DNA from: a virus
Taxonomy: Duplodnaviria > Caudoviricetes
DNA length: 64,000 nucleotides
Direction: 5' to 3' (one strand)
IMG/VR virus record: IMGVR_UViG_3300007171_000004
Span: 1-64,000 of that record
Under the pieces are notes generated by a model that saw only the letters and a list, made by a program, of their open reading frames with translations, had not been told where the DNA came from and searched no databases. Of this stretch, positions 1 through 51,600 are shown one piece after another (position 1 is the stretch's first letter; the number at the start of each line of letters is the position of its first letter). The position numbers and the translations under genes are program-made.

Positions 1-342
1 TATAAAAACCATAATTGCAATTGATCGTTACACAATTAGCAATTACTCCACCATATCCTCTTGAAAATCCATAAGTACAGTTTTTTGCTACACAATAAAC
101 GGGATGAGTTACTGAAAATCCTGTAGTACAAGTATCTGCTTCACAATTCATTGTTCCAACTGTATTTCCAGACAGAAATACAGTTGGAACAATGAATTGT
201 GAAGCAGATACTTGTACTACAGGATTTTCAGTAACTCATCCCGTTTATTGTGTAGCAAAAAACTGTACTTATGGATTTTCAAGAGGATATGGTGGAGTAA
301 TTGCTAATTGTGTAACGATCAATTGCAATTATGGTTTTTATA
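1..342. repeat. Perfect 168-bp inverted repeat (1-168 vs 175-342) with a 6-nt loop CAGACA (169-174); fold-back at the window start
   Basis: 1-60 is the exact reverse complement of 283-342, and pairing continues to TGTATTTC-cagaca-GAAATACA at the centre (paired positions sum to 343). Confidence 0.95.
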
Positions 343-1271
343 TTGGTAATTGCACTCTAAATCATTGTATAGCTCACAATTCTTCAATCAATGGTGTTTA
401 CAATACCGCATCTGGTAATGGATTATTTAATTGTCTCATAACAAACAGTGGCGGTTATGGGTTAGCTGATGGTGGTAATACTTTAATCAGAAATTCATTT
501 GGATTTGGGAATACTTTAGGCAATTCCAATGGAGTTACATATGGATTCACAACTTTAACAGCAAGTCCTTATGTTGATTCTACAAGCTCTGATTTGAGAT
601 TGAATAATAATCCTGGCGGAGGTTTGTTAGTCAAAAATAATGTTTATCCCAAATCGTTTCCGGGAGTTCCAGCATTAATTACTTATGCAGATGCTAGTGC
701 TGCACAATCAATTGACTCTGTTTCTTATTTGAATCCAGAAATATCAATCTTAGTTAAAGCTGGAACAACATCAAGAACAGAATTTTTATATCTTAATACT
801 ACAGGACTGACATTTAGTTCTGTTGGATTGTCAGCTTCTTACGTAAGACCTGGATCAGCAAGAACTGCAATCACTTTAGTAACACAAACAACATCTGGAT
901 CATGGACTTCAGGAGGATTTGTTGAAGTTGATTCAGTGACTATGCCAGGATTATATAGGTTAGATGTTCCAAATGCGGTCTTTGCTTCAGGTGTAAATTC
1001 AGCAGCGATTGAAATTTTTAACAGCAACACTAATGATAGATTTGTTGTTACATATCATTTTACTCAAGAAATGCAATTAGATTTAACACAAACAATTCCT
1101 AATTCTACAACTGTTGGAAGTGTAGGTGAAGCTCTTAATGCTATGAGAGCTCAAGGATTTGGTAAATGGACTTTTGACGGTACAAATTTAAATATGTATG
1201 CTGCAGATAATGTAACTATTTTGAAAACATTAACTTTTAATTCTGTTAGCAATCCTACAATGAGGTCATAA
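192..1271 (+). CDS. Putative virion surface protein, 5'-truncated: beta-helix-like repeats plus conserved C-terminal module
   Basis: CxxxNCxxGF coil repeats, then the module KAGTTSRTEF...WTSGGFVEVD...MPGLYRLDVP...GEALNAMRAQGFGKW shared with 8 other ORFs. The true N-terminus is probably lost at the fold-back. Confidence 0.7.
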   Translation: MNCEADTCTTGFSVTHPVYCVAKNCTYGFSRGYGGVIANCVTINCNYGFYIGNCTLNHCIAHNSSINGVYNTASGNGLFNCLITNSGGYGLADGGNTLIRNSFGFGNTLGNSNGVTYGFTTLTASPYVDSTSSDLRLNNNPGGGLLVKNNVYPKSFPGVPALITYADASAAQSIDSVSYLNPEISILVKAGTTSRTEFLYLNTTGLTFSSVGLSASYVRPGSARTAITLVTQTTSGSWTSGGFVEVDSVTMPGLYRLDVPNAVFASGVNSAAIEIFNSNTNDRFVVTYHFTQEMQLDLTQTIPNSTTVGSVGEALNAMRAQGFGKWTFDGTNLNMYAADNVTILKTLTFNSVSNPTMRS

Positions 1272-1272
1272 A

Positions 1273-1605
1273 ATGGATATAGATCATCCCGAATTAGTAA
1301 AGTTCTCAAATGAAAAAGGCAGAATTTGTGCTGATTCTTTACTGCAAGCTTATAACACAGCTAAACAATTTATTGAGCATTGGAATAATCTTTCCACTGC
1401 TATGCCTAATTTACCAGATGAAATTGCAGATGGCTCTCAATCTTCTATGGGTATTTCAGCTGATGGTAGAAAATCAATTACAGGCGAAAAATATCATCAA
1501 TTCAAAACTTCTTGTGAATCAATTATAACTTTAGTAGAATCCAATGATAATGAAATTAAAACATTATTATTAAATATAGCTGTGAATGGACAGGCTAGGT
1601 TCTAA
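1273..1605 (+). CDS. 110-aa hypothetical protein (possible fibre chaperone), paralog of 11716..12048
   Basis: Near-identical layout to 11716..12048 (HPELVKFSNEK..ICADS...IADGS...ADGRK.ITG...IAVNGQARF); its stop overlaps the next ATG. Confidence 0.8.
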   Translation: MDIDHPELVKFSNEKGRICADSLLQAYNTAKQFIEHWNNLSTAMPNLPDEIADGSQSSMGISADGRKSITGEKYHQFKTSCESIITLVESNDNEIKTLLLNIAVNGQARF

Positions 1606-3734
1606 TGGGAGTTCAACTAAGCTTGATGGAAGTTCAAGCTACTGGATCAGATAATAATTCAGGCTTGTTTGATACACAAGCTTCTATGACATCTACATTA
1701 TCTGCTACAAGTGCTAATACAGCTTCTCCAGTAGTAACAGCTTCAAACTACACATTTACTGCAAATGATGTAGGACATTTTTTATACGTCAAGCCTAGTG
1801 GAAGTTGGAAATCTGGTTGGTATAAAATCGCATCTGTAACTTCTGGTGCTGCTACTTTAATTGCTAGTATTGGAAGTGTATTTGGTGGTGATAAACAACC
1901 CAATACTACACTTGGAATCAGCTTAAATGCAACAGATTCAGGTGGGACATGGGCAGTTGATTATACACAGAAAAATACTTCTTTTATTTCATATACAGAT
2001 TTAGTTGCAGTTACAGCTTCACAATTAACATCTGCTGCTAATCCATTTACACCTAATTTAATTGGTAATTCAATACAAATATTATCAGGTACAGGATTTT
2101 CCCCTAACATTTACATCATAAGTTCATTAACAGGTTCTGCTGCAAATTTTCATACTAGCTTTGCCACACCCGGATCTACAGGTGGAACTGGAAATCTAGG
2201 CGGAGCTTTAGCCACTGTACATAAAGCTTGTGGAATGATTGGAATTAATCAAAATTATGTTTATGTAAAAGGAAGCGCTGGGATAATTACTGTATCTTCT
2301 AATGCTTTCGGATTAATACAAGCTCATAGTGTTATTGGTTATCAAAATAATAGATGGGATAATTTAAAAGCCACCATTAGATTAGGAGCAGCAGGGACAA
2401 GATTTTTAACAAGTGGTGATGGTAGATATGCATACTTACATAATCTTATAATCGATGGACAAGGTTATTCTGATACAAGGGCTACTTCATTTGGAAATAA
2501 TCAAAGATCATATGCTTATAATTGTGAATTTAGAAATTTAACATATGGGCTTTGGGCTCAAGGTGGTTTTACTGTAGATAATTGTATCTTTGAAAATATT
2601 ACTACCAGTCCTTTTGGATATACTACAGGTTCTATATCCAGATGTATATTTAAGAATTGTTATGGTAGTGTAGGTAATCCAGTCACTGTAGATAGATCTA
2701 TATTTATTGGTGGAAATACAGGTATATATAATTCTGGTGCTGTGGGACAAATAACTAACAACACATTTTATAATCTTTCTGGTGATGCAATATATTTTTA
2801 TAGCAATTACACAACTACAATAGGCAACACAGCTATAATTTATAATAATATATTTTCAAATATATCAGGATATGCAATTAATTACGCAAACAATGGACTT
2901 CAATATAACTTAGTATCAAAGAATAATGCTTACTTTGCTTGTACTAGTGGTAATTTTTATAATGGCAGAGGTAATGACCCTAACGTAGGTAATATTCAGT
3001 TAGTAAGTCAAATCCAATTATCTTCGTCCCCATTTGTTAATCCAAGTGTTGGTGATTTAAGACTAAATAATGATCTAACAGGTGGAAGATTATGTCGTGG
3101 TGCTTCTATATCTTCAACCAGTATTGTAACAACATCTATTGATGCCTTGGATTTAGGTGCAGTTCAGTCAAGTTCTAATCTAGTTGATCGTAATTTAGCA
3201 CCAGTAAGTAAAAGTCTAACGATTAAACAAGGCACAACTTCGTATACAGAATTTATAAATTTAATTGGAACTGGATATACAATCAGTAATCTTAAAGCTT
3301 ATTACACGAGAGTGGGATCTTCACCAGTGGAAATTACATTGACTTCTCAAACTGTTAATGGAGCATGGACATCTGGTGGTTTTGTAGAAATAGATAATAA
3401 CTCAATGCCGGGTATTTATAGATTTGATGTACCTAATGCAGTATTTAGTTCTGGATCTTCCTCAGCTATATTGCAAATATCAAACTTAAGTACAGGGGAT
3501 AAAGCAATTATTATTTACAAATTCCAAGATCAACAAACCCTAGATTTCACTCAAACATTTCCAAATTCTAATGTAGCACAATCTATTGGAGATGCTTTAA
3601 ATGCAGCTAGATCTTCAGGTTTTGGTAGATGGACTTTGAATGATAGAACTTTGAGTTTATATGGTGCAGATAATACCACTATTGTTAAAACATTCACTTT
3701 GAATTCTTCCACATTCCCTACAGAGAGAAGTTAA
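1605..3734 (+). CDS. Putative virion surface protein: beta-helix passenger plus conserved C-terminal module
   Basis: N-terminal EVQ..GSD.NSG.FD domain shared with 12048..14876; NC.F.N and NN.F coil repeats; C-terminal SGGFVEID/MPGIYRFDVP module. Confidence 0.75.
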   Translation: MGVQLSLMEVQATGSDNNSGLFDTQASMTSTLSATSANTASPVVTASNYTFTANDVGHFLYVKPSGSWKSGWYKIASVTSGAATLIASIGSVFGGDKQPNTTLGISLNATDSGGTWAVDYTQKNTSFISYTDLVAVTASQLTSAANPFTPNLIGNSIQILSGTGFSPNIYIISSLTGSAANFHTSFATPGSTGGTGNLGGALATVHKACGMIGINQNYVYVKGSAGIITVSSNAFGLIQAHSVIGYQNNRWDNLKATIRLGAAGTRFLTSGDGRYAYLHNLIIDGQGYSDTRATSFGNNQRSYAYNCEFRNLTYGLWAQGGFTVDNCIFENITTSPFGYTTGSISRCIFKNCYGSVGNPVTVDRSIFIGGNTGIYNSGAVGQITNNTFYNLSGDAIYFYSNYTTTIGNTAIIYNNIFSNISGYAINYANNGLQYNLVSKNNAYFACTSGNFYNGRGNDPNVGNIQLVSQIQLSSSPFVNPSVGDLRLNNDLTGGRLCRGASISSTSIVTTSIDALDLGAVQSSSNLVDRNLAPVSKSLTIKQGTTSYTEFINLIGTGYTISNLKAYYTRVGSSPVEITLTSQTVNGAWTSGGFVEIDNNSMPGIYRFDVPNAVFSSGSSSAILQISNLSTGDKAIIIYKFQDQQTLDFTQTFPNSNVAQSIGDALNAARSSGFGRWTLNDRTLSLYGADNTTIVKTFTLNSSTFPTERS

Positions 3735-5884
3735 TGAGTAAATTCTTATACCAGATACAATCAGGATTAAACCATCAACATACTTTTGGATTGATTGATT
3801 ATTGGGTTCAAACTGTCACTGCATCTGGATATACTCAAACATTAGAAATTCAAGCTGAAGCTACAGGAAATATTACAAAAATAGGTGTTTTATTCAGTAG
3901 TAGATCTGGAACTCCTGGTATTTTTAGAATTAGTTTAGAAGACCCTGCAACCCCTGGAGTATATTTAAATTCTGGTACAGCCTATGCAGATTATAATTCA
4001 GCCACTGGTACTGTAAACACTTTTGCTGAATTAACTATACCTCCATGCCCAGTAGTTTTAGGACAATATATTAATGTTGTAACTCAAACATATTCTGGAA
4101 CATTTGATGCTAATAATAAAACTAATCATCTTTATGCTTTATGGGCTGGTGGATATCAATTTCCAAATGGCAGAGGAACATTTCGCACTCCAGTATTTTA
4201 TTATGTAATCAATGGTAAATACTATGGATATCCTCATTATGGAGAAACATCAACAACAGTATCTGGAACACAAGAAGCTGGAATAAAAATCACAATTCCT
4301 AAGGGAGCTGGGACTACGCATTTATTGCAAGATATCGTATCAAAACTTAATGGTAACACTCCAGTAACTATTCTTATATATGCGTCTAATGGAACAACTT
4401 TACTTCATCAATCTACTGTTATTTTTGTAAGTAATTCATGGAGAGCAAATAAATTTCCATTATCTAGTGAATTTTATATGAAAGCTGGAGAAACATATTA
4501 TATCGTTTTCAAAGCTCCTTCTGGCGGTACATTATATTTTGCAGTAGTTGATGGTTATAATGAACAAGCTTGGGAATCTCAAACTCAAGAATATATGATT
4601 TATGTTAACAGAGCTTCGAATAGTGTTGCTTTTACTGAAACTGCTGGTAGAAGAATGTCAGCTCAATTAAGATTCAAAGATTTAGCTTCCTTAGATTATT
4701 ACAACCCTACATCTACATATAATAAAGCGATTAATATCAAAGCTGGCACAACATCTTATTCTGAATATGTGCAATTAAACGCCACTGGAATTGCATTTAA
4801 TACTCCGGGAATTACAGCTTCATATGTTAGATCAGGTGGAGTTAGAGTTGGTATTACTTTAGTATCTCAAACTGTTAATGGCGCATGGACTTCTGGTGGA
4901 TTTGTAGAGGTAGATGCTGTTAACATGCCGGGTCTTTATAGAATTGACATACCGGATGCAGCATTTGCTTCAGGTGTTAATCAAGTTACATTAATGATTA
5001 AAGGATATAATCAGACAAATGGAGCTTTAGTGACATATCAATTTACTCAAGAATTAATGCAGATTGATATGACACAAAATTATCCTAATACAAATACAGC
5101 TGGAACTATTGGAGATGCTTTTAATGCTGCGAGAACTGGAACATTTGGTAGGAGATCAATAAGAGACAAAACCATATATTATTATTCTCCTAATGAAATT
5201 GATATAGTTAAAACATTGTATCTTGATTCAGCATCAGCCCCTAAAAGCAAAATGGAAATTCAAACTGATAATGTGTTTGGATTGATATTTCATTTAGATG
5301 CTGCAAATTCAACTTCATATCCCGGAACTGGAACTACATGGCTTGATATATCTGGTTTTGGAAATCATGGAGCCTTAACAAATGGACCAACTATAGGCGG
5401 TACTGGAACGGGTAAATATTTCTTTTTTGATGGTACTAATGACTTTGTGGATTTTGGGTCTTATACTCCCGAAGCAGATACTATTTCTCTATGGTATTAT
5501 CACATTTCTAACAATGGTGCAATTGCTGCTGTAGGTAATGATGCTTATAATTATGGCACATGGTCTTGGTCTTTAATCTCAGGATCTGGTGGTGCTAATA
5601 ATTATAATGTTTTTAGTGGAAGTAACGAATGGATTAATCAGAATCAATGGGTAAATGTTGTAATGGTTCGTTCAAATCCTACACAAGTTTATGTAAATGG
5701 ATTATTAAGATCAACATATAACTCTGGCAATTTATCAAATCCTTTTCCATTTTTAAAATTAATGACATCAGGAAACACTAAACCTGCTGGAAGACTGTCT
5801 GTAGTAAAAATCTGGAACATAAGATTAAACGATGCACAAATACTACAAGAATTTAACACATATAAATCTAGGTATGGCTTATAA
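3734..5884 (+). CDS. Putative virion surface protein: beta-sandwich N-terminus, conserved module, LamG-like lectin domain
   Basis: Module at ~aa 335-505; C-terminal LDAANSTSYPGTGTTW...FDGTND...KSRYGL LamG/concanavalin-like domain; N-terminus resembles that of 10139..11713. Confidence 0.75.
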   Translation: MSKFLYQIQSGLNHQHTFGLIDYWVQTVTASGYTQTLEIQAEATGNITKIGVLFSSRSGTPGIFRISLEDPATPGVYLNSGTAYADYNSATGTVNTFAELTIPPCPVVLGQYINVVTQTYSGTFDANNKTNHLYALWAGGYQFPNGRGTFRTPVFYYVINGKYYGYPHYGETSTTVSGTQEAGIKITIPKGAGTTHLLQDIVSKLNGNTPVTILIYASNGTTLLHQSTVIFVSNSWRANKFPLSSEFYMKAGETYYIVFKAPSGGTLYFAVVDGYNEQAWESQTQEYMIYVNRASNSVAFTETAGRRMSAQLRFKDLASLDYYNPTSTYNKAINIKAGTTSYSEYVQLNATGIAFNTPGITASYVRSGGVRVGITLVSQTVNGAWTSGGFVEVDAVNMPGLYRIDIPDAAFASGVNQVTLMIKGYNQTNGALVTYQFTQELMQIDMTQNYPNTNTAGTIGDAFNAARTGTFGRRSIRDKTIYYYSPNEIDIVKTLYLDSASAPKSKMEIQTDNVFGLIFHLDAANSTSYPGTGTTWLDISGFGNHGALTNGPTIGGTGTGKYFFFDGTNDFVDFGSYTPEADTISLWYYHISNNGAIAAVGNDAYNYGTWSWSLISGSGGANNYNVFSGSNEWINQNQWVNVVMVRSNPTQVYVNGLLRSTYNSGNLSNPFPFLKLMTSGNTKPAGRLSVVKIWNIRLNDAQILQEFNTYKSRYGL

Positions 5885-7191
5885 TGGCAATTTATCCGTA
5901 TTTCTCAACAACAATAATTAACAAAGATGTATTAACAAATTCATCTTTTAAAGCTGGAATGGCTCTTGTATTAGATAGCAATGGAAGAGCAATAAAAGCT
6001 GATAGTCAATTATTAGTATTTGATTCAATTTCTCAAAAATATGGAAAATTCTTAGGGTTCGCTGCTTCTGATCATGATATTTCTGGCAACACAATTATTA
6101 TCCCAGATGTTGTTGGATCAAATTATCTAGATGCAAATTATAACTTTGTCAAAAATGAAAATACAGAATACTCAGTTGCCAAAAGAGCCATATTAGATCA
6201 TCAAGACACAGCTGTAAGTAATTTCTATAATGCTTCTGATTCTAATATCTTATCTAAAAGAGGTATTGGAGTTTATAACACACCCGGAGATTATTTTGTA
6301 ACAGATCAATTTGTCAGAGTATTGCATGGAGATTATGGAGTAGATTCAACCACTCTTGTAGATTTAAATCCCGGAGACCTATTAACTTTTGGCGGAGGAA
6401 TTAACGCTGGAAAATTAGTGAAGGTTAATGTTAATTCTTTTGGACCAGATTTAATTGTTGTAGGCCAAGTAAATAAATATGTTCCAGTTACAGGATTGCT
6501 ATATTTTACTCAGGTTAATTATAGTGTAAGTTTTGGTGGTAATTCTTCTACTGTCTTAGCTCTTGATGCTGGCTCCACTGTCTCTTATCCGGGCTCTGGT
6601 ACAGTTTGGTATGATTTGTCTGGTAATGCTAGAAATTTCAGTTTAATCAATGGTCCAGTTTATTCTCCTGTAAATTCTGGTGTCATTTCATTTGATGGTA
6701 CTAACGATTATGCTGAATTAAACTATACATCAGCACAAAATATTTCTACATTATTATTTTGGTTCAATTCGAGAAGTTTTTCTTCTGCTCCATCTTACGA
6801 ATGTTTGACTGCTTGGGATAGTGCTTCTCCAGGAGGTTTTGACATAAGAAAAAGTTTAGGCTCAAATCAGATTGAGTATAGTGATTATTACAATGGGCTT
6901 TTGGGTACTAGAAGTATTGGGGCTATATCTGACAATTCTTGGTACTTGGTGGCAATTACTTATGACAATGTTTCATTAAAAATTTATTTAAATAATAGTA
7001 AGGTTGTAGATTCACCTACAACTGGTCCAAAAGTAACTGGATCTCCGACATTACAAATTGCAGGAAATCCTTTTAGACCTAATAGACAATTAGATTGTTA
7101 TTTTTCTGAATATAGATTCTTGTCCAAAGCACTAACAGCCACAGAAATATCAGCTTACTATAATGCAACAAAAGGAAGATACGGTTTATAA
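5884..7191 (+). CDS. Putative head-decoration-like N-terminal domain fused to a LamG-like domain
   Basis: N-terminal GMALVLDSNGRAIKAD...FLGFAASDH...PGDLLTF...GKLVKV...VVGQV pattern resembles capsid cement proteins; C-terminal LDAGSTVSYPGSG...FDGTND LamG domain; lacks the conserved module. Confidence 0.6.
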   Translation: MAIYPYFSTTIINKDVLTNSSFKAGMALVLDSNGRAIKADSQLLVFDSISQKYGKFLGFAASDHDISGNTIIIPDVVGSNYLDANYNFVKNENTEYSVAKRAILDHQDTAVSNFYNASDSNILSKRGIGVYNTPGDYFVTDQFVRVLHGDYGVDSTTLVDLNPGDLLTFGGGINAGKLVKVNVNSFGPDLIVVGQVNKYVPVTGLLYFTQVNYSVSFGGNSSTVLALDAGSTVSYPGSGTVWYDLSGNARNFSLINGPVYSPVNSGVISFDGTNDYAELNYTSAQNISTLLFWFNSRSFSSAPSYECLTAWDSASPGGFDIRKSLGSNQIEYSDYYNGLLGTRSIGAISDNSWYLVAITYDNVSLKIYLNNSKVVDSPTTGPKVTGSPTLQIAGNPFRPNRQLDCYFSEYRFLSKALTATEISAYYNATKGRYGL

Positions 7192-10139
7192 TGGCTACAT
7201 TTTATATTAAACCATCTGCAAGCGGTGGTAATGATAGCAATAATGGATTATCTCCTTCTACAGCTTGGGCAACATTAGGAAAAGCTTTAAGTGCTAGTCC
7301 TGGATTGTCAGCTGGAGATATTGTTTATGTAGCTCCCGGAACATACAGAGAATCATTAAGTGCAAACCTAGAATATTTAGGAAATAGTGGAACTGATGTC
7401 AATCCAATCCAAATCAAAGGAGATCCAAGAGCATTACAAGCTTGGGGAAATATTACTCCTGGAATTGTAAGATGGACTGTATTTCCAACAGATAATACAA
7501 ACCCAGTGACAGGATGGAAAATTTTATCTGCCAATTCTAAAAATTATGTCAAATGGGAATCAATTTATTTTGATACATGGACAAGTAGCTATGCAATCAC
7601 ATTAAATTTATGCAGAGGCTGGTCTTTTACTAAATGTTGCTTTAATTCTGTTCAATTAAATAATCAAATCTTTCAACTCACAAACGCTGCAGGAGTGCCA
7701 TATGATTTTACTTTAGATCAATGTGTTCTTTATGGAATGCAATGTTTTACAGTTACACATGAAAGACATACTTCTACTTATGATGTTAATATAAATATAA
7801 AAGATTGTATATTTTTAGGCAATCCTCAAACAGGTCAAGCAATTGTATTCACGGCTTCTGGAACTGGATCAGATGGTAATGGAATAAAAATTTACAATTC
7901 TTATTTCGCAGGTTTTAATAGTCAATCTATATATATTAGCTCTACAAACACAACCCATAATAGCATTGTTAAAAACTGCATAATCGTAAACGGAAACATA
8001 TATGGGGCAGTAACAGGAGCAGTAGTACAAACATATAACAGATTGATTGGAACAAGTTTACAAAATACTGCTTCAAGTGCAACATCCATATCTGCTGGAA
8101 CTTCTGGACTTTCTCTTGGCTACGAAAGAATTAACAATCTTTTTGCCCATGATATTTATTCGAGTTATTTAAATAGTCCTTTGATTAACTCTGGAGAATT
8201 ACTTAACGCTCCGACAACAGATTTATATAGCAACCCTTGGACTGGAGCTAACCCTGATGTTGGACCTATAGCTTACAAACCCATCTCTAATCCTCAATTT
8301 GTCGCATCAGATTCAGTGGTAAATATTAGACAAAATACAACATCTAGGACAGAATTTATCAACCTTAACTCTGTCGGATATAAATTTAATACAGCCACTT
8401 TAGTCGCATCTTATATCAAACTAGGTGGAACAAGAACAAGTATTCCCCTAGTAACACAAACAGTAACAGGAGCTTGGACATCTGGAGGGTTTGTTGAAAT
8501 AGATCCAATTAATATGCCTGGACTCTATAGATTTGACGTGCCAGATACAGTATTCGCCAGCTCCGCATCAGCAATACAAATTATAAATACAGCTAATTCA
8601 GATAAAGCCACAATTACATATAAATTTACACAAGAATATAAAATAGATTTAACTCAGGCTGTTCCAGAAATTAATGTTCCAAATACTGTCGGAGATGCAC
8701 TTAACGCAGCCAGAGCAGGAACATTTGGTGGCATGACAATTGGTAATAAAGAATTAAATTACTATAGTCCTACAAATGCTATTATCAAAACATTTACAGT
8801 TGATTCTAATACATACATCAGATCTAAAAAAGAAAAGAACTTTATTCCTTATGATGGATTAAAATTATATCTAGATGCTGGTAAAGGATTATCATATTCT
8901 GGCACTGGTTCTAACTGGGTGGATTTAAGTGGAAATTACAATAATGGCTTCCTAACAAATGGCCCTACATATAATTCAGCCAACGAAGGAACTATTGTAT
9001 TTGATGGCACTAACGATTATATTTCTTTCAACACGCAGCCATTAAGTGCCACAGCTTTTACGATTATTTTGAATTTTAAAATATCAACATTTACAACTCA
9101 AGGAACTAAATTTAGAAGATTAATCGCTATCAATCAAACTGGATATGCTTTTGATAATCCTTTTGCATTCTTTGTTAACGATACAGGCAAATTAGGATAT
9201 TTAGTTGGGAATGGTGCGTTTCCGAACACTGAGGAAATGCTAACTATTACAGGTGGGCCAACATTAGAAATTAATAAATGGTATCACGCTGCTTTAACAT
9301 TTAACGGAACACAAAAGAAACTATACATTGGCGGTAATTTAGTATCAACAATTACAAACTCTACAACATTCACAAATTCATTAAATAATAAGCTGATAAT
9401 AGGCTCAAGAAATGGCACTGATGGATGTTTACAAGGTTCTATTGGTACTGTTCATGTTTATAATAGAGCTTTATCAGATGCAGAGGTTATGAGTAATTAT
9501 GCTATATATAATTCTAGATATATTTCTGGCATAGTTCAATCAGGATTACTTCTTTATATTGATCCAAATAATTTGCAATCATATCCTGGATCTGGAATTG
9601 TTTTATATAATTTAGTCAATGCTCAATACAATGGTGTGATGACAAATGGAGCTTCTTTTGGTTCTGATTCTTCTGGCGGATATATAGCCACTGATGGAAC
9701 CAATGATTATGTAAAATTTCCATTAACAAGAAATACAACTCCATACACTGTTTTTGTATTTTCAAGAATATTTTCAAATGGAAGAATGATATCTGACGAT
9801 TCCAACTGGTTAATGGGAAACTGGATGGGCAATCAAAATGCTTATCATGCTAATGGCTGGGTCTGGCAAAATGGTGGTCCTACAGGAAATGGATGGAGAT
9901 CGCATTGTGTTACTGGAGATTACACTAACGACACCTGGAAAGTTTTTGCCAATGGTGTTAAGTTAGCTGAAAATAGTGGTGGAAGCAGTGGTTTTACAAA
10001 TATCACATGGGGAATTTGGAATAGTGCAGGCGAACCCTGTGCTGCTCATTTTGGTGTATTCTTAGTGTATGACAGAGTATTAACAGATGCAGAAGTATTA
10101 CAAAACCATGAAGCTCTTAGAGGAAGGTACGGAATCTAA
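7191..10139 (+). CDS. Putative virion surface protein: beta-helix, conserved module, two LamG-like domains
   Basis: Starts FYIKPS..GGNDSNNG...AWATLGKA (typical pectin-lyase-like start); central module; two LamG repeats (LDAG..SY.G.G and IDP.N..SY.G.G), each with a DGTNDY motif. Confidence 0.8.
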   Translation: MATFYIKPSASGGNDSNNGLSPSTAWATLGKALSASPGLSAGDIVYVAPGTYRESLSANLEYLGNSGTDVNPIQIKGDPRALQAWGNITPGIVRWTVFPTDNTNPVTGWKILSANSKNYVKWESIYFDTWTSSYAITLNLCRGWSFTKCCFNSVQLNNQIFQLTNAAGVPYDFTLDQCVLYGMQCFTVTHERHTSTYDVNINIKDCIFLGNPQTGQAIVFTASGTGSDGNGIKIYNSYFAGFNSQSIYISSTNTTHNSIVKNCIIVNGNIYGAVTGAVVQTYNRLIGTSLQNTASSATSISAGTSGLSLGYERINNLFAHDIYSSYLNSPLINSGELLNAPTTDLYSNPWTGANPDVGPIAYKPISNPQFVASDSVVNIRQNTTSRTEFINLNSVGYKFNTATLVASYIKLGGTRTSIPLVTQTVTGAWTSGGFVEIDPINMPGLYRFDVPDTVFASSASAIQIINTANSDKATITYKFTQEYKIDLTQAVPEINVPNTVGDALNAARAGTFGGMTIGNKELNYYSPTNAIIKTFTVDSNTYIRSKKEKNFIPYDGLKLYLDAGKGLSYSGTGSNWVDLSGNYNNGFLTNGPTYNSANEGTIVFDGTNDYISFNTQPLSATAFTIILNFKISTFTTQGTKFRRLIAINQTGYAFDNPFAFFVNDTGKLGYLVGNGAFPNTEEMLTITGGPTLEINKWYHAALTFNGTQKKLYIGGNLVSTITNSTTFTNSLNNKLIIGSRNGTDGCLQGSIGTVHVYNRALSDAEVMSNYAIYNSRYISGIVQSGLLLYIDPNNLQSYPGSGIVLYNLVNAQYNGVMTNGASFGSDSSGGYIATDGTNDYVKFPLTRNTTPYTVFVFSRIFSNGRMISDDSNWLMGNWMGNQNAYHANGWVWQNGGPTGNGWRSHCVTGDYTNDTWKVFANGVKLAENSGGSSGFTNITWGIWNSAGEPCAAHFGVFLVYDRVLTDAEVLQNHEALRGRYGI

Positions 10140-11713
10140 TGCCAACTCCAACAGGTTTTCAAAGAAACTTAATAACTGTTCGTGCTACGCCAACTCCTTC
10201 TCAAGGCAACTCAGAACTTCAGAATGGTTTATTTAACAGTGATGGATTAAGAATGGTCCATAACTTTCAAATGCCAGATACAGATACAATCACTACAATC
10301 GGCATTCATATTGCTGGTCATGGTCCCGGAACTTTACAAAAACATCTTAAAGTTGGAATTCAATCTATAGCACCTAATGGACAACCTACAGGAACTTGGA
10401 GAACAGTAATAGATTATTATTCCAATGGTAATTCAGCAACAGGTTTACAAACATTTAATCTTTCCCCATCTTTAACTTTAAATCGTGGAGAATATTACGC
10501 TGTAGTAATCCAATCTATATCAGGACATGCAACAGATAACTACACATACGTTTCATCTGTAAGAAATGGAGTTTTGCAATCAGGTCTTCCATATACAGTA
10601 AGACCAGATTTCTTTATAGAGTACAGAGGAGAGCCTTATATTGTTGTAAGATCAGCTACAAACTCATATTCTATTCCCCTAGTGACATATCCAATTCAAG
10701 AAGCTTTTAATCAAACACTAGAAAAAGGATTTAAATTTAATCTCAATCCTTCTGTTGGTTCAAGATTTACATTAAGAGGGGTGAAAATTTATGCAGATCT
10801 TTCACTCTATAATGCAACAATTAATATGAATCTTTATGACTCTGATGGAACAACAATTTTAGATACAGTGACATTAGATACAGATTTACCAGCAGACTTA
10901 CAAAATGTTTTCCACACCTTATATTTTGATGGCACATTTCTACCTCAAATCTATACAAATAAGAACTATTATATAGGTTTCACTACTAATTCATCTACCA
11001 ACATGTTTTTGAATTCTTATGAGGTTTATAACATTCAAGATTGGGGTTATATTACAAACCATCAATTTACATATTATAACAAAAATAATAATGTGATAAC
11101 TGAAACAAATACAAAGAGAATTATTGTTGAATTAATTCTTGAAGATGTATCAGGAATGTCAGTGGCTTATACAAATGCTGAGATTAATCAACAAGTAGCA
11201 GCAGGAATTACAAGCAGGACAGAATTTATATACCTTAATGCTTCTGGATATACATTTAATACCGCAGGACTTTCAGCATCATATATCAGATCAGGATCAA
11301 CAAGAACTTCTATTACATTAGCTTCTCAAACTGTTAATGGATCTTTTGTTTCAGGTGGTTTTGTTGAGGTTGATTCCCTAAACATGCCGGGACTTTATAG
11401 ATTTGATGTCCCCGATGCAGTGTTTGTAAGCGGTGTTAAATCAGCTGCTGTAGAAATAATAAATAGTAATACAAATGACAGGTTTATTATTACATACAAT
11501 TTCCTAGAATCAATGACTTTAGACTTTGCACAAGCTATTCCCCTTACGAACACTCCTGGAACAATTGGAGATGCTTTAAATGCAGCTAGGGCAACAGGTT
11601 TTGGAAGATGGGTTATTACAGGAAACACAATGAATTTATATGGACCTGATAATACAACGGTTATTAAGACCTTTACATTAGATTCAGGGTCTGCGCCAAA
11701 GAGTAGGAGTTAA
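10139..11713 (+). CDS. Putative virion surface protein: beta-sandwich N-terminus plus conserved C-terminal module
   Basis: N-terminus ITTIGIHI...LKVGIQ resembles 3734..5884; C-terminal module SGGFVEVD/MPGLYRFDVPDA/GDALNAARATGFGRW. Confidence 0.75.
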   Translation: MPTPTGFQRNLITVRATPTPSQGNSELQNGLFNSDGLRMVHNFQMPDTDTITTIGIHIAGHGPGTLQKHLKVGIQSIAPNGQPTGTWRTVIDYYSNGNSATGLQTFNLSPSLTLNRGEYYAVVIQSISGHATDNYTYVSSVRNGVLQSGLPYTVRPDFFIEYRGEPYIVVRSATNSYSIPLVTYPIQEAFNQTLEKGFKFNLNPSVGSRFTLRGVKIYADLSLYNATINMNLYDSDGTTILDTVTLDTDLPADLQNVFHTLYFDGTFLPQIYTNKNYYIGFTTNSSTNMFLNSYEVYNIQDWGYITNHQFTYYNKNNNVITETNTKRIIVELILEDVSGMSVAYTNAEINQQVAAGITSRTEFIYLNASGYTFNTAGLSASYIRSGSTRTSITLASQTVNGSFVSGGFVEVDSLNMPGLYRFDVPDAVFVSGVKSAAVEIINSNTNDRFIITYNFLESMTLDFAQAIPLTNTPGTIGDALNAARATGFGRWVITGNTMNLYGPDNTTVIKTFTLDSGSAPKSRS

Positions 11714-11715
11714 GA

Positions 11716-12048
11716 ATGTATATTGAACATCCAGAATTAGTGAAATTTAGCAACGAAAAGACTAGAATTTGTGCAGATTCTATTCTTCAATCATACAACA
11801 CAATGAAGCAATTTTTAGATCATTTTGAAGCATTAATCGAAACAATGCCAAACACCACCGATCAGATTGCAGATGGTTCTCATGATGCTATGGGACAGTT
11901 TGCAGATGGAAGAAAACCTATCACCGGAGCGCAAACATTAGAATTTAAAGCTGCTGTAGAACAAATTATTGCTCTTTATGAATCTAATGACAACCTAATT
12001 AAAAAGACCTTATTACATATTGCAGTGAATGGTCAGGCTAGATTCTAA
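11716..12048 (+). CDS. 110-aa hypothetical protein, paralog of 1273..1605
   Basis: Same length and motifs as 1273..1605; coupled to the next gene through TAATG. Confidence 0.8.
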   Translation: MYIEHPELVKFSNEKTRICADSILQSYNTMKQFLDHFEALIETMPNTTDQIADGSHDAMGQFADGRKPITGAQTLEFKAAVEQIIALYESNDNLIKKTLLHIAVNGQARF

Positions 12049-14876
12049 TGGCAATATCAGGTTATTCAGTGTGGGAAGTTCAAAGCGCAGGAAGTGACAC
12101 AAATTCTGGCTGTTTTGATCCTAATGCCACAATGACTAGCACTTTATCAACAACTAACGGAACAAATGCTAATCCTATTGTTACAGCTTCTAATTATGCT
12201 TTCGTTTCAGATGACATTGGACATTATCTCTATATAAAATCTGGAAGTGGTTGGTATCCTGGTTGGTATAAAATTCTTTCAGTTTCTTCTGGAGCTGCTA
12301 CTGTTCAGGCTGGCTTAAATAATGCAACTCAAGGTAACGGAGTTTTAAACGTTTTAACAGGGATTTCATCTTCAAATTCAAATTCATCAGGAACTTGGGC
12401 AGTTGATTATTCACAAAAACCAACAGCATTTAAAACATACACAGATTTATTTACATATACAAATACAGGAGTAAATTCAGCTGCACAACCTTTTACTCCT
12501 AACTTAATCGGCAATGTTTTAAATGTCACTGGTGGCACGGGATACTTTACTGGTAGATTTGTAATTAATAGCGTAACAGGAAACAATGCAGGTTTAGATC
12601 GTACAATTGCTGCTTCTAATACTTCTGGCGGACAAGCAACTTTAGGCGGAGCAATGGCATCTGTCCAAAGTTGTTTAGCTACAATCAGGCCAAACAGTGG
12701 TAGTGGCAGTCTATATCTTAGAATTTTTATAAAAGCTGATGCTACTTATAATGTTAACTCCTCCATAACTGTAGATTGTCCAGATTATTTTAGTTTGATT
12801 GGTTATGGAACAGTTAGAGGAGATAGACAAAAGCCATTAATTAGTATAAACGCAAACAATGTGACTTTCTTAAAAGGTGGAAGTTATGTCCCGCAACAAA
12901 TGAGATGGTTTAATATTAAAGTTACAGGAAATGGTTTTACAACTAGTACATATGCATGGTCTTTTGTTCAATTTAGTGGATTAAGGCAAGTAGTAACAAA
13001 TTGTGAATTCTATGATATGACTCTCTTGGGAGGTGCATATGGTGTAGGATTTAATTTTGATAAATGCTATTTCAAAGGCATTACAGGCTCTTGTAATGAC
13101 TCACCTCATGTTGTAAATTCTTGTACTATTGATTCATGCACAAGCCCTAGATTCTGGGGTGGACAAGCATATAATTCATTGTTTTTTAATTCTGGAGGAT
13201 GTGTTTTTGGTAACGGTTCTGGGATTATGAATGTTAAAAATTGCACTTTTTATAATTGCAACACTCCCATTTGGATACATAACAATTGTCATGGAGGCAA
13301 TACACAGCATACAATTATAGAAAACAATATTTTCTCTAATAATTCTGGATATGCGATTCAAGGTATAGGATTAGCAAACTGTGGAGAACATGCTTCAGCT
13401 ACCGTTCAAAATAATGCCTTTTATCTTAATTCTTCTGGAAATTTCAATTATGGCTACAACTCATATAATGTAAATATGGTTGAAAGTGTTGATAATGTAA
13501 TATTAACTGCTTCACCTTTTGTTTCTACAGCTACAAATGATTATAGACTAAACAATACAATAGGTGGAGGATTAAATTGCAAAGGAAAGGGAGCACCGAG
13601 TTTATATTTCAATAATAGCGCAGCAAACTCAATTGACATAGGAGCGGTGCAATCAGCCTCTAACAATCTTGATAAAACCCTTGGAACTTTAAATAAACCA
13701 ATCCTTATTAAAGCTGGAACAACTGGATATACAGAATTTGTCTATCTCTCAAATACAGGCTATACATATCAAACAACAGGATTAAAAGCTTTCTATATTA
13801 GACCTGGAATCAATAATACACAAATTACTCTAGCATCTCAAACAGTAAATGGATCTTATGTTTCTGGAGGATTTGTAGAAGTTGATGCTGTGAATATGCC
13901 TGGACTTTATAGAATTGATGTCCCCGATGTTGTTTTAGCAAGCGGAGCAACAACCTCTGTATTACAAATTATCAATCAATCTAATAATGATAAAGCAATT
14001 ATATCTTATAAATTCCAAGATCCTATTAATTTAAATCTTACACAATCTGTTCCTTTGAATAACACTGACCAAACTGTAGGAGATGCTTTAAATTCCGCAA
14101 GAGCATATGGATTTGGAAAATGGGCTATTAATGGAAATCTTTTAGAATATTACACTCCTGATAATTTAACCATTATGAAATCTTTAACCTTGGACAATTC
14201 TAATTACCCAAGATCTAGAGGCACTGCATTCACTACATTTGGTCTTGTTATGAATTTAGATGCAAAAAATATTTCTTCTTATCCTGGTTATGGAAATACA
14301 TGGTTCGACACAACAGGTAACTTAAATCACGTAACCTTAACGAATGGGCCTGTATGGAATTCTAATGGGTACTTTGTAAATGATGCAGATTCTTATTTTA
14401 CTGGCGCTGGAACCTCTTCAATACCTATAGCAAATTCATCTTACTCTATGTTTGTTTATGTAAGAATGTCGAGTTGGGCCGATCAGAGAGGTTTTATTTC
14501 TATAGGTGGATTTGGAACCAATAATCAATCTAATGCTTTAAGAACACAAGGAAGCCTAGGGACATTGATTCATTATTGGTGGTGGAATGATTTATCCATA
14601 ACCAATAATAATGCAAATATAGCTCTTAATAGATGGTTTTACGTTGGAGCTACATTTGATGGCATTACAAGAAAAGTTTATGTAGATGGAATTCTTGTTG
14701 GATCTGATACACCTTCAAACCATAATGTAACTTCCACAGCTATTCAAATATCAAGAACCTCAAGTAATGAATATCAACAAGGTGATATTGCCACTGCTCA
14801 AATTTATAATAGAGCTTTAACAATAGAAGAAGTAAATGCAAATCTTCTTTATTTTAGAAATAGATTTGGCTTGTAA
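12048..14876 (+). CDS. Putative virion surface protein: beta-helix, conserved module, LamG-like domain; paralog of 1605..3734
   Basis: The first ~200 aa align with 1605..3734 (WYKI.SV.SGAAT, GTWAVDY.QK, FTPNLIGN); module followed by a C-terminal LamG domain. Confidence 0.8.
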   Translation: MAISGYSVWEVQSAGSDTNSGCFDPNATMTSTLSTTNGTNANPIVTASNYAFVSDDIGHYLYIKSGSGWYPGWYKILSVSSGAATVQAGLNNATQGNGVLNVLTGISSSNSNSSGTWAVDYSQKPTAFKTYTDLFTYTNTGVNSAAQPFTPNLIGNVLNVTGGTGYFTGRFVINSVTGNNAGLDRTIAASNTSGGQATLGGAMASVQSCLATIRPNSGSGSLYLRIFIKADATYNVNSSITVDCPDYFSLIGYGTVRGDRQKPLISINANNVTFLKGGSYVPQQMRWFNIKVTGNGFTTSTYAWSFVQFSGLRQVVTNCEFYDMTLLGGAYGVGFNFDKCYFKGITGSCNDSPHVVNSCTIDSCTSPRFWGGQAYNSLFFNSGGCVFGNGSGIMNVKNCTFYNCNTPIWIHNNCHGGNTQHTIIENNIFSNNSGYAIQGIGLANCGEHASATVQNNAFYLNSSGNFNYGYNSYNVNMVESVDNVILTASPFVSTATNDYRLNNTIGGGLNCKGKGAPSLYFNNSAANSIDIGAVQSASNNLDKTLGTLNKPILIKAGTTGYTEFVYLSNTGYTYQTTGLKAFYIRPGINNTQITLASQTVNGSYVSGGFVEVDAVNMPGLYRIDVPDVVLASGATTSVLQIINQSNNDKAIISYKFQDPINLNLTQSVPLNNTDQTVGDALNSARAYGFGKWAINGNLLEYYTPDNLTIMKSLTLDNSNYPRSRGTAFTTFGLVMNLDAKNISSYPGYGNTWFDTTGNLNHVTLTNGPVWNSNGYFVNDADSYFTGAGTSSIPIANSSYSMFVYVRMSSWADQRGFISIGGFGTNNQSNALRTQGSLGTLIHYWWWNDLSITNNNANIALNRWFYVGATFDGITRKVYVDGILVGSDTPSNHNVTSTAIQISRTSSNEYQQGDIATAQIYNRALTIEEVNANLLYFRNRFGL

Positions 14877-14909
14877 GGAACTGTCTCTGGATTTTAGAAA
14901 GATATATGT

Positions 14910-16562
14910 ATGGCAACTTATTATGTAACAGTATCTGGATTAACAACAAATACAGGATTGAGTGTTAATAGTCCTTGGTCTATAGGTAAAGCTTTTTCAA
15001 CAGCTACAGCAGGAGATACAGTATATATTGCTCCTGGAGAATATAGTGGGAATTTTACAGTAACAAATACAGGAACTTCTGGATCTAATTTAAATTTTAT
15101 AGGCGACCCTTTATTAACACAAAACTGGACCGGAATTTCTGCTGGAGAAGTTTCAATTACAGGTTTTACAAGCAATATCGCAGATCCACCAAATACAACT
15201 GCTATTGTTTCAATTACAAGCAAGTCTTATATAAATTTCTCATACATCACATTTAGAGGAAAGACTTTAAATGCAGCATATCCTGCTTCTCCAGCTGGAT
15301 TGCTAACATTGACTACCTCAAGCTTTATTAGTTTCAATAAATGTTATTTTGATCAATATAATACAAATGCACCATCTGTATTTATTACAAACTACACAAA
15401 CAATTTATTCAATTTTACTTTTACAAACTGCATTGCAAACTTCATTAGATCTACAAGTCACATGGTTTATATACTAAGTAACCAATCAGCTTCGACTTTT
15501 CCATGTAGTATAAAAAATTGTCTAGCAATCAATGGTGGAATTTATTATAATTACGTTTATGTTGGAAGAAATGACATTGCATCATCATTGGGAGGTTCTG
15601 TAATCCAGAATTGCACATGTATAAATGGCAACTCTGCAATAGAAACTGCAACTTCATCTTCAGTCAAAGATCAAGTTACAAACTGCTTGATTGCTTGCTC
15701 AACTGGATCATTAGTGGCATATCAAAGTGGAATCAATGAAAATTATAACAGAATTATATCAGGGCCTAGAACAAACACTCCAGTTGGTGCAAACTCTATT
15801 TCTGGAGGCACTTATGGTCTTGAAATAGGTGCATCTTTATTTTATGGATTACCTAATACACAATTCTATAATCCAACACCAAATTCTCAAAATCTAGCTA
15901 TTGGCACTTCCACTGGTTTACTTTCACCTGATCTTTATGGAGTTACATGGGCTAATCCACCAGCAGTAGGATCATCAACATATAGCCCATTAAGTAATCA
16001 AGCAATATATATACCATCTGATAGAACAACATTAAATTTAAATATATATGAAGGATCGACATCTCAATCTATTCAAGTATATCTTGGGCAAACAGGTTTA
16101 ACATTTAATAATTCAAATATAACAGTGAAATATGCTAAATTAAATCAATCTTCAACGAATGTGACTTTAGCTAATCAAACTCCTACAGGCTCTTGGGTCT
16201 CTGGAGGATTTTGTGAAATTGATTCTGTTAATATACCTGGTTACTATAGATTTGACATACCAGACGCTGCGCTTTCTCTTGGAACTAAATTATTAACAAT
16301 TACTTTTAAGGGATATAATTCTAGTACTAATGGAACTTTTGTCAATGTAAATCTGATAAAAGCGCAACTAGATATGACCCAACCTGTTCCTACATCTAAT
16401 ACAGCTCAAACGGTGGGAGATGCATTAAACGCAGCTAGAGCACAAGGTTTCGGTAAATGGACAATTAATGGGAATACATTGTCCTTTTATGCACCTGATG
16501 GAACTACAATAATTAAATCCTTTACATTAGATTCAGCAAAATTCCCAAGTCAGAGAGTATAG
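14910..16562 (+). CDS. Putative virion surface protein: beta-helix plus conserved C-terminal module
   Basis: MATYYV...G...PW...GDTVYIAPG.Y start; C-terminal module. Confidence 0.75.
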   Translation: MATYYVTVSGLTTNTGLSVNSPWSIGKAFSTATAGDTVYIAPGEYSGNFTVTNTGTSGSNLNFIGDPLLTQNWTGISAGEVSITGFTSNIADPPNTTAIVSITSKSYINFSYITFRGKTLNAAYPASPAGLLTLTTSSFISFNKCYFDQYNTNAPSVFITNYTNNLFNFTFTNCIANFIRSTSHMVYILSNQSASTFPCSIKNCLAINGGIYYNYVYVGRNDIASSLGGSVIQNCTCINGNSAIETATSSSVKDQVTNCLIACSTGSLVAYQSGINENYNRIISGPRTNTPVGANSISGGTYGLEIGASLFYGLPNTQFYNPTPNSQNLAIGTSTGLLSPDLYGVTWANPPAVGSSTYSPLSNQAIYIPSDRTTLNLNIYEGSTSQSIQVYLGQTGLTFNNSNITVKYAKLNQSSTNVTLANQTPTGSWVSGGFCEIDSVNIPGYYRFDIPDAALSLGTKLLTITFKGYNSSTNGTFVNVNLIKAQLDMTQPVPTSNTAQTVGDALNAARAQGFGKWTINGNTLSFYAPDGTTIIKSFTLDSAKFPSQRV

Positions 16563-16565
16563 TAA

Positions 16566-18242
16566 ATGGCCACTTATTATGTTAGACCGGATGGAAGCGA
16601 TTTAAACTCAGGATTAGGACCAGCAGCAAATCAAGCTTGGGCAACAATTGGGAAAGCTATGTCCAATAGTGTTTCTCCTAATGATCCTGCAACTGTCTAT
16701 ATTGCCCCAGGTACATATAGAGGACAAATAACAGCATCTTTTACAAATCCTTGGGACTATTCTAGAAGAATGTCATATTACGGAGACCCTACATGCTCTC
16801 AATTTTCGGGTATTTCTCCAGGACCTGTAGTCATAACAAATTTTACATCTAATACTTCATACCTTAATGTTTCTGGTGTCATCAGTATACAAAAAGATTA
16901 TTTGACATTTAGAGATATCACATTTCAGGGGTATATTCCTGGATCCGTTCCTAATTATGGGATTGTGATGAGTTTCAGGGGTATACAGATGATTTTTCAA
17001 AGATGTCAATTTATGGCTTACGTTGTTGACGATGCATATCCTATGACTTTTGTAATTCCAGCTGGTCAACAAGGATATACATTTGAATCATGTACATTTT
17101 TAGGTAAAGTAAATATCCAAGGGGAAGCTCATACTTCAGACTGGAACCCAAATACAACTGTAAAAAAATGTTTATTCATAAATGTTTCAAACAGAGCTAA
17201 CAATCAAGATAATTTAAATTTTCAAGCTTCTAGTGCTTGGCAATACGGTGGTGCTACTGTTTCTAATAATGTATTTATTTCATCAAGATATGGAGTGTCA
17301 AACATAGGGCAAAACTCTAGTTCTACATATCCTATTATTGTGAAAAACAATATTTTTTACACATCTGATTATTCTATATATGGGACCAATGCTAATCAAA
17401 TTATTGAATCATATAATATTTTTGTTACAGTAAATCCTAGAAATAACTTTGTTTATGCTGGGACTGGTAGTTATACTAATCCTATGCATTTATTTAATTT
17501 AGGTATGTCTCGAGTTCAAGGATGGAATCAAAATTTACCATTCTTTGCTTCTTTAAATTCTGGATTAGCAAATAATATTGGTACTTCTGTGGGAGCTGCA
17601 TCTTCGGACTTTAATGAGACTGCTTGGAATAATCCGTCCACACCAACTATAGGTATGTTCGAATATACTTTTAATGATCCTGTGGAAAAATACATGCCCC
17701 TAGAACGTCAAGTAGAATCTTTCACAGTATCTCCAAACACAACAAATAGAACAGAATTAATCTATCTTGGAGCTAAAGGATTAACACATACAACTCCATC
17801 TTTATCTGCTTCATATGTAAGAGCTGGAGCAATTAGAACAGCAATTACATTAGTAAGCCAAACCCCTAATGGATCTTGGACTTCTGGGGGATTCTGCGAA
17901 ATTGACTCTACAAACATGCCTGGAATTTATAGAATAGATGTACCAAATGCTGTTTTCGTTGCTGGAGCTGAATCTGCAATGCTACAACTCACCGGAGCTA
18001 GTCAAACAAATGGAGCTGTAGTGCATTATAATATGGCTAAAGTACAATTTGATCTTTCACAAAATGTACCGCTAACAAATACAGCACATAGTATCGGAGA
18101 CGCTTTAAATGCAGCCAGAGCCCAAGGATTCGGCAAATGGCAAATAGTTGGAAATACTATGAATATTTATGCTGAAGATGGAATTACTTTAGTGAAATCA
18201 TTTAATCTAGATTCAGGGTCTTATCCAACTCAGAGAATGTAA
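16566..18242 (+). CDS. Putative virion surface protein: beta-helix plus conserved C-terminal module
   Basis: MATYYVRPDGSD.NSG.GPAANQAW start nearly identical to 49745..51373; C-terminal module. Confidence 0.75.
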   Translation: MATYYVRPDGSDLNSGLGPAANQAWATIGKAMSNSVSPNDPATVYIAPGTYRGQITASFTNPWDYSRRMSYYGDPTCSQFSGISPGPVVITNFTSNTSYLNVSGVISIQKDYLTFRDITFQGYIPGSVPNYGIVMSFRGIQMIFQRCQFMAYVVDDAYPMTFVIPAGQQGYTFESCTFLGKVNIQGEAHTSDWNPNTTVKKCLFINVSNRANNQDNLNFQASSAWQYGGATVSNNVFISSRYGVSNIGQNSSSTYPIIVKNNIFYTSDYSIYGTNANQIIESYNIFVTVNPRNNFVYAGTGSYTNPMHLFNLGMSRVQGWNQNLPFFASLNSGLANNIGTSVGAASSDFNETAWNNPSTPTIGMFEYTFNDPVEKYMPLERQVESFTVSPNTTNRTELIYLGAKGLTHTTPSLSASYVRAGAIRTAITLVSQTPNGSWTSGGFCEIDSTNMPGIYRIDVPNAVFVAGAESAMLQLTGASQTNGAVVHYNMAKVQFDLSQNVPLTNTAHSIGDALNAARAQGFGKWQIVGNTMNIYAEDGITLVKSFNLDSGSYPTQRM

Positions 18243-18269
18243 AAAAAGGCTTCGAAAGAAGCCTTTTTT
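18242..18269. terminator. Bidirectional intrinsic terminator between convergent operons
   Basis: AAAAAAGGCTTC-GAAA-GAAGCCTTTTTT: perfect stem with A/T tracts on both sides. Confidence 0.9.
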
Positions 18270-18270
18270 C

Positions 18271-42590: not shown

Positions 42591-42851
42591 CTACTCTTTT
42601 ACGATGATGCAATTGGTATATTCTAATAACTTAGCAATGATAGCAAGACTTAATTCTGTATTGCTTTTACCAAGATCATTGTATTCATCACCTTGAATTA
42701 CAAATAAATTTTTAGATATAACTTGTTGTTCTAGGTTTAAAAATGAAAATACCATTCTTATACCTGATTCAAGATCTATGTTGCCTGTTTCAATAGAGAT
42801 CCAGGCAACATTCGGGTTATCTTTTTTATATACTCTGAACAAATGCATCAC
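42591..42851 (-). CDS. Hypothetical protein
   Basis: 86-aa ORF coupled between two fibre genes. Confidence 0.5.
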   Translation of the reverse strand: MMHLFRVYKKDNPNVAWISIETGNIDLESGIRMVFSFLNLEQQVISKNLFVIQGDEYNDLGKSNTELSLAIIAKLLEYTNCIIVKE

Positions 42852-51373: not shown

Positions 51374-51600
51374 TATTCCGCTGTCCCATCTACTATTTCT
51401 CTAGCCATAAGCCAAACAAATTGATTTACGATTGATAATTGCCATTCTGAGTCTTGTCTAGCCCACCATTCAAACATACTTGTACCATTGGGACCAAAAT
51501 TGGCAATTTCTTCATTTAAATTATTTGTAATCACGCCTTTAACAATCCAATCTGCTGGATTCTGAGGATTTTGTGTAATTTCTAATGTCGAGAAGTTCAT
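51373..51600 (-). CDS. Small protein with one ~70-aa W..G.I...FG..GT...WW..Q repeat
   Basis: Aligns with both halves of 51644..52093. Confidence 0.7.
   Translation of the reverse strand: MNFSTLEITQNPQNPADWIVKGVITNNLNEEIANFGPNGTSMFEWWARQDSEWQLSIVNQFVWLMAREIVDGTAE

Follow-up and report, generated by a model that had tools for sequence, protein, structure and literature searches.

The window analyzed here comprises the first 64 kb (positions 1 to 64,000) of IMG/VR virus record IMGVR_UViG_3300007171_000004, a single contig of 300,536 bp with a G+C content of ∼34%. The contig is recognizable as phage by its genes for structural proteins, terminase, endolysin, and nucleotide metabolism, and its source is an uncultured freshwater jumbo phage of ∼300 kb. 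At least eight metagenome studies, of riverine, drinking-water, sludge, and freshwater samples, contained near-identical sequence. At the left end of the window, between positions 192 and 18242, lies an array of genes that share one conserved protein module, and it is this module, together with the variable domains joined to it, that is described below. When the array was compared with the GenBank phages (50,697 records) by megablast, no match was returned; the phage is without a close relative there.

A Conserved Two-domain Module in Ten Proteins

A first-pass annotation of the sequence had described the module in eight open reading frames (ORFs) of the array and in a ninth at 49745–51373 (minus strand), and this was confirmed by the ORF listing, by alignment, and by a profile hidden Markov model (HMM) built from the copies and run over the entire genome. 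Copies within the window scored with E-values of 1e-77 to 1e-90. The same genome-wide search identified a tenth copy at 204032–205645 (minus strand), directly downstream of the large terminase gene, and no further module beyond these ten. The module was measured at ∼175 residues, longer than the ∼150 originally proposed. Its copies are 42–57% identical to the first copy and have 27 invariant columns in the alignment. Mean column identity is 64% for the module versus 28% for the whole proteins, and no other element is common to all ten. It ends the protein in seven of the ten copies and is followed by LamG sequence in three.

Profile hits divide the module into domain A (profile positions 2–109) and domain B (107–175). 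AlphaFold modeled domain A as an immunoglobulin (Ig)-like β-sandwich with a predicted local distance difference test (pLDDT) score above 90, and domain B as one helix with a three-stranded sheet. Sequence searches of Pfam, PHROG, and the PDB gave no usable match, whether the query was the whole module or either domain by itself; one BIG2 row (E = 0.018) was weak and was judged to be noise. Against PDB structures, domain A retrieved generic Ig-like folds only. Fold searches gave no structural analogue for domain B, no phage head protein was prominent in them, and no phi29 head-fiber, Hoc, or pb10-type protein was among the matches listed. Some predicted-structure neighbors were labeled BppU N-terminal domain or phage tail protein: an AFDB cluster labeled “BppU N-terminal domain-containing” (E = 1.5e-11, template modeling (TM) score 0.55) resembles a family member that has an insert, and the TM score was 0.42 for an Atlas cluster in which 32% of the members have BppU_N. 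The corresponding Pfam family, PF10651, was matched neither by the window proteins (E ≤ 0.01) nor by 60 N-terminal A domains (E ≤ 1). Cohesin and dockerin gave no Pfam match, a single weak and generic AFDB row being named dockerin (E = 1.1e-3). The comparison with a cellulosome made in the first-pass annotation is supported neither by sequence nor by fold. Identity with the Peptidase_S74 chaperone was rejected: no S74 match was found, and the domain is N-terminal in many relatives, free-standing in others, and followed by LamG in three genes here.

Layout of the Array and Its Passengers

All array genes that contain the module lie on the plus strand. The first is incomplete. Bases 1–168 are 100% identical to the reverse complement of 175–342, a perfect 168-nucleotide fold-back at the contig start that is probably an assembly artifact. 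Given that this fold-back lies inside and cuts the first gene, the ORF at 192–1271 is a 5′-truncated fragment whose ATG at 192 is internal; 183 residues of a class II passenger remain in front of the module (741–1268). Its orthologue in a related phage (P0009) has 689 residues and is 89% identical over residues 332–689. The array may continue upstream of the contig start, with the genome incomplete at that end. The remaining module genes are, in order, 1605–3734, with a class II passenger (∼535 residues, β-helix-like) and the module at 3210–3731; 3734–5884, with a class III β-sandwich passenger, the module at 4724–5254, and one LamG-like domain (∼5255–5881); 7191–10139, with a class I β-helix, the module at 8313–8828, and two LamG domains; 10139–11713, with a class III passenger and the module at 11183–11710; 12048–14876, with a class II passenger, the module at 13695–14219, and one LamG domain; and 14910–16562 and 16566–18242, each with a class I β-helix followed by the module (16035–16559 and 17715–18239, respectively). 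The chaining of array genes by TAATG was also borne out, one-base overlaps being present at six junctions (1605, 3734, 5884, 7191, 10139, and 12048); these overlaps are evidence for translational coupling only and do not establish the stoichiometric co-assembly that the first-pass annotation had suggested. Scans of the array for promoters and terminators gave no excess over shuffled sequences.

The passengers in front of the module had been described as highly divergent β-helices or β-sandwiches. Sequence comparison sorted the passengers into three classes, so that they are not all unrelated. Class I is a β-helix of ∼370 residues that begins with MATYYV at Met1 and is found in the genes starting at 7191, 14910, 16566, and 49745 and in the 204-kb copy (27–39% identity); Pfam Beta_helix matches 49745–51373, and PF13229 or PF22842 match class I homologues. 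Class II (∼540 residues) is found at 1605, at 12048, and, truncated, at 192. Class III, a predicted β-sandwich with only a weak DUF4082 hint, is found at 3734 and 10139. By sequence class, seven of the ten passengers are β-helix-like, a larger number than have direct family matches. The N termini of the array proteins matched nothing in Pfam or PHROG, class I starting directly with the β-helix cap, and none looked like a signal peptide when read by eye.

LamG sequence follows the module in three genes, in agreement with the first reading. Laminin_G_3 (PF13385) scored above the gathering threshold in 7191–10139 (two domains, 90 bits) and 12048–14876 (one domain, 48.6 bits); in 3734–5884 the trailing domain was recognized by PHROG 24074 and by its motif only, with no Pfam match. 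The LamG parts match PHROG families annotated as “virion structural protein.” The β-helix and β-sandwich heads probably bind or cut glycans.

The ninth copy (49745–51373, minus strand) combines a class I β-helix with the module at 49748–50272 and sits within a cluster of tail-fiber-like genes. Immediately upstream on the same strand lies u75, a gene for a 75-residue protein (51376–51600), preceded by a gene for a 149-residue protein that consists of two tandem u75 units (51644–52093). Directly downstream are genes for two free-standing LamG proteins of 221 and 449 residues, the latter with two LamG domains (47720–49734, minus strand); Laminin_G_3 matches both (47720–49069 and 49069–49734). The order, ninth copy and then free-standing LamG genes, is thus the same as that of the fused module-LamG-LamG protein.

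Exchange of Cassettes at the Module Borders

Comparison with related phages showed that the module of each slot is 82–97% identical in relatives, for all ten slots, and that the flanking parts are far less conserved. In some pairs it is the passenger that differs. The protein encoded at 16566 has a passenger 34–37% identical to those of its counterparts P0002–P0005 and a module 94–97% identical, with no LamG; for 49745 and P0007 the values are 37 and 96%, also with no LamG, and for 1605 and P0017 they are 45 and 89%, again with no LamG. The protein encoded at 7191 is 42% identical to P0026 in the passenger, 94% in the module, and 86% in the LamG part. In other pairs the LamG part differs: for 3734 and P0021, the passenger is 92%, the module 83%, and LamG 39% identical, and for 12048 and P0011, the values are 93, 87, and 32%, respectively. 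Across related genomes, therefore, the slot modules are constant (82–97%), and either the passengers (34–45%) or the LamG parts (32–39%) have been replaced.

One such replacement could be located at the nucleotide level. The P0002 contig matches the window at 16516–16645 (92%) and again at 17718–18278 (95%), with ∼1 kb of unrelated sequence between, so that the passenger of the 16566 gene has been replaced in the related phage between 16645 and 17718. The breakpoint at 17718, the one resolved to nucleotides, coincides with the module start at 17715. The first ∼30 codons of the gene are 92% conserved in nucleotide sequence across the swap. Joints at 16642→17718 and 7286→8283, and others across LamG segments, were found in independent metagenome contigs, with the caution that applies to such contigs. 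Joints between paralogous modules (e.g. 11374→17918, with 27 nucleotides on the shorter side) were set aside as possible chimeras. These comparisons support the domains on both sides of the module as exchangeable cassettes. The modules of different slots are only 42–57% identical, which argues that they are old, slot-specific versions and not one interchangeable plug. The module is supported as the constant element of the array; a single common anchor is doubtful, since the versions that differ within the genome are each kept in relatives.

A Large Family in Environmental Phages

An exhaustive profile search retrieved 7,124 cluster representatives (50% identity) at E ≤ 1e-3 and 4,137 at E ≤ 1e-10. 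By contrast, tblastn against the 50,697 GenBank phages found two carriers only, both uncultured Manatee Spring phages. The family is very large and uncharacterized, common in environmental phages and almost absent from cultured ones. Contigs of metagenome-assembled genomes from at least eight phyla carry it, among them contigs of Planctomycetota, Proteobacteria, Chloroflexota, Nitrospirota, Actinomycetota, and Cyanobium; this spread argues against a host-specific ligand for domain A.

Several architectures occur beside the passenger-A-B order of the window. In 80 IMG/VR loci that were fetched for comparison, the commonest was a class I β-helix followed by A and a β-rich C terminus of 120–200 residues. 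Among the 150 best matches, 46 have A from residue ∼3 of fiber-like proteins, in which B often forms the extreme C terminus. Tandem A-A and A followed by Ig-like C termini also occur, and A+B is found as a free-standing protein of 172–198 residues, some of whose clusters hold 34–70 member sequences. Contigs of 82 and 42 kb contain tandem arrays of six or seven class I β-helix+A genes; in L025/L088 (a complete 82-kb IMG/VR phage) and in L072, these paralogues stand right after the head-tail connector genes. As phages much smaller than the present one have six- or seven-gene arrays, such arrays are not a specialty of jumbo phages.

Parts that are fused in the window are encoded separately elsewhere. 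In a related 261-kb contig (L012), two module-less class II genes are followed by a gene for a 186-residue A+B protein, which has the start that is canonical for the family (MAKLSV...), and then by two LamG genes. An A-fiber-B gene lies between class II genes in L005, a gene for a 933-residue SGNH-esterase-like protein precedes one for a 196-residue A+B protein in L120, and a class III passenger has a gene of its own in L087. The occurrence of the same parts either fused or adjacent is a classical sign that they work together.

Gene Context and u75

The position of module genes points to a virion role for their products. In ∼56-kb podovirus-like contigs, class I genes follow those for the portal, the capsid, and two SU10-type adaptors. 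Four mutually unrelated genomes, two of them prophages, have genes with an N-terminal A domain between terminase/portal and capsid genes: MW202621, L089, the prophage L090, and L105, which is a Nitrospirota chromosome. In another genome such genes follow the connectors. Proteins encoded immediately upstream of A-fiber genes in different phages had no mutual similarity, and hence no common partner was found there.

Among the IMG/VR loci, a u75 gene ends ≤12 nucleotides upstream of the class I gene in 53 of 64 cases. Within the window, the three u75 units precede the ninth copy only, and nine of the ten copies are without u75. Pfam, PHROG, and Atlas offered no annotation for u75, which could be a candidate chaperone, cap, or adaptor for the β-helix.

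Other Genes of the Array and Its Surroundings

One array gene (5884–7191, plus strand) has no module. It encodes a 215-residue N-domain followed by LamG (Laminin_G_3, 51.5 bits), and there are six N-domain paralogues elsewhere in the genome: five tandem N-domain+LamG genes at 257822–264375 and a 228-residue stand-alone copy at 186716–187399. The N-domain+LamG genes are a second series with a constant domain and a variable lectin. Two 110-residue helical ORFs (1273–1605 and 11716–12048, both plus strand) are 65% identical paralogues. Each lies upstream of a class II gene, and they mark a segmental duplication that is visible as the repeated order of module gene, 110-residue ORF, and class II gene. 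For these ORFs, Pfam, PHROG, and Atlas gave no lead and no homologue with an annotated function.

An Endonuclease VII/HNH-like gene stands at the array end (18271–18975, minus strand). It is not in the related contig L119, in which 18278 is joined to ∼19007, and it is likely a mobile homing-type endonuclease insertion. In the tail-fiber cluster, 42848–45481, 45486–47660, and 52095–53420 (minus strand) encode large structural-type proteins that share a C-terminal domain of ∼115 residues (PHROG 17490/28536).

Discussion

The combination of slot-specific conservation, exchange that is precise at the module border, and an argument by elimination makes a constant assembly or docking unit of virion surface proteins with swappable heads the best explanation for the module, and this assignment is made with moderate confidence. 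Domain A, with B as a helper or cap, would link the variable heads either to one another or to the particle. These heads would be the N-terminal β-helix or β-sandwich passengers and the C-terminal LamG lectin-like domains, and recombination at module borders would trade them between related phages, giving new host-surface recognition with assembly left undisturbed. The ten modules would be versions specific to their slots. The docking role itself is suggested by elimination: A-fiber-B proteins and free-standing A+B hold no other candidate attachment domain, so that the module would carry the attachment if these proteins are structural, and A, as the universal part, would be the best candidate.

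A number of observations weigh against this assignment. The proposed virion location is drawn solely from gene context. The portal and capsid proteins of A-carrying phages belong to unrelated families (P22_portal, SU10_portal, SPP1_portal, and Phage_portal), and it would be odd for A domains that are ∼50% identical to dock onto such differing proteins; given this, the docking partner may travel with the module. Instead, the anchor could be u75 or the ∼30 residues with which class I proteins begin, both of which are conserved. The AlphaFold models of the module domains are monomers, and the IMG/VR loci were picked via domain A, which inflates the conservation of A across them. In addition, the module of class I and II proteins occupies the position at which canonical tailspikes carry their C-terminal oligomerization or host-binding domain (PMC10253068).

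This last point leads to the main alternative, which we regard as possible, if rather unlikely, namely that the module is an ordinary tailspike C-terminal domain in which A binds glycan or stabilizes the trimer and B is a trimerization cap, attachment being provided by the N-terminal β-helix cap, possibly with u75. Canonical depolymerases do end in an oligomerization and/or host-binding domain (PMC10253068), the generic Ig-like fold of A has neighbors resembling carbohydrate-binding modules, and the conserved motif of A contains Trp, Phe, Tyr, Arg, Glu, and Asp. The u75 gene in front of most class I genes, the codons retained at the start of the 16566 gene across the swap, and the tandem A-A and A-plus-Ig-like C termini would all be accommodated. 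However, N-terminal-A fibers and free-standing A+B would then be left without an anchor, the module is also joined to passengers other than β-helices and then to LamG, u75 accompanies only one of the ten copies in this phage, and the hosts are too varied to share a single glycan.

A docking unit may also be directed to a particular site. It is conceivable, though unlikely, that A+B is a portable plug for the head or neck, the array then consisting of head or collar fibers that decorate the capsid or neck with enzymes and lectins. This would amount to a natural phage display, with ten slot-specific versions of the plug and with a polarity opposite to that of classical tailspikes, the enzyme being N-terminal and the anchor following it. 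The A-fiber genes between terminase/portal and the major capsid gene in four genomes and the tenth copy downstream of the large terminase fit such a site, as does the spread of the family over podo-, sipho-, and jumbo-type genomes, which have their head and neck architecture, though not their baseplates, in common; an Ig-like N-terminal domain is known in the phi29 head fiber (PMC9509320). Yet the genes follow the head-tail adaptors in podovirus-like contigs, the ninth copy lies among tail-fiber-like genes, head proteins were not prominent in the fold searches, and gene position is weak evidence. It is considered very improbable that the proteins are instead kept out of the particle, as soluble enzymes and lectins that lysis would release and that A+B, as a tag, would target to the cell surface. 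Free phage depolymerases do exist, but the consistent location in structural modules, the fiber-like relatives, the translational coupling in late-type operons, and the matches of LamG parts to structural PHROG families all speak for particle-bound proteins.

Receptor-binding arrays, in which a constant assembly part is combined with swappable specificity, are how broad-host-range phages are built, and they are the main handle for host-range engineering. In the present array the constant part is an uncharacterized two-domain module that stands behind the enzyme and accepts cassettes on both sides. Should the docking role prove true, the attachment system defined by the module would be both new and portable, many metagenomic structural genes now labeled “hypothetical” would be accounted for, and clear domain borders would be available for head exchange.

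Comparison with Known Systems

Hoc is an example of the promiscuous Ig-like accessory domains found on phage structural proteins. Like these, the module has an Ig-like fold and turns up at many positions in many unrelated phages; unlike them, it has no Pfam Ig match, is far more conserved, is always paired with B, and also forms a free-standing gene. T4 fibritin has an N-terminal attachment domain, a shaft, and a small C-terminal folding domain. Module relatives with an N-terminal A, a repetitive shaft, and B at the extreme C terminus, encoded near portal or neck genes, are similar to it, whereas in the present proteins A and B are contiguous without a shaft; the likeness seen is one of layout. 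The BppU N-terminal domain (PF10651), known from the baseplates of lactococcal phage TP901-1, is an Ig-like β-sandwich at the N terminus of an adaptor-type structural protein. Some predicted-structure neighbors of the module bear its label, but none of 60 family members match PF10651 and the fold match is at the generic Ig-like level.

Of the known systems, the one that comes closest is the branched multi-tailspike apparatus found in CBA120 (TSP1–4) and in the jumbo phages RaK2/phiK64-1 and phiKp24, in which conserved assembly domains are combined with variable enzymatic domains and domains are exchanged by horizontal transfer (PMC10253068, PMC9700779). As in those phages, which are often jumbo, there are about ten depolymerase-like paralogues per genome, the enzyme activity here being predicted from sequence, and a conserved, putative assembly domain goes with swapped variable domains. 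The systems differ in the placement and identity of the docking part. The docking domains of the CBA120/RaK2 type (anchor, D1, and the T4 gp10-like XD) are N-terminal, and none was matched here in Pfam or PHROG; in the present array an unrelated A+B follows the passenger, with LamG cassettes on its other side.

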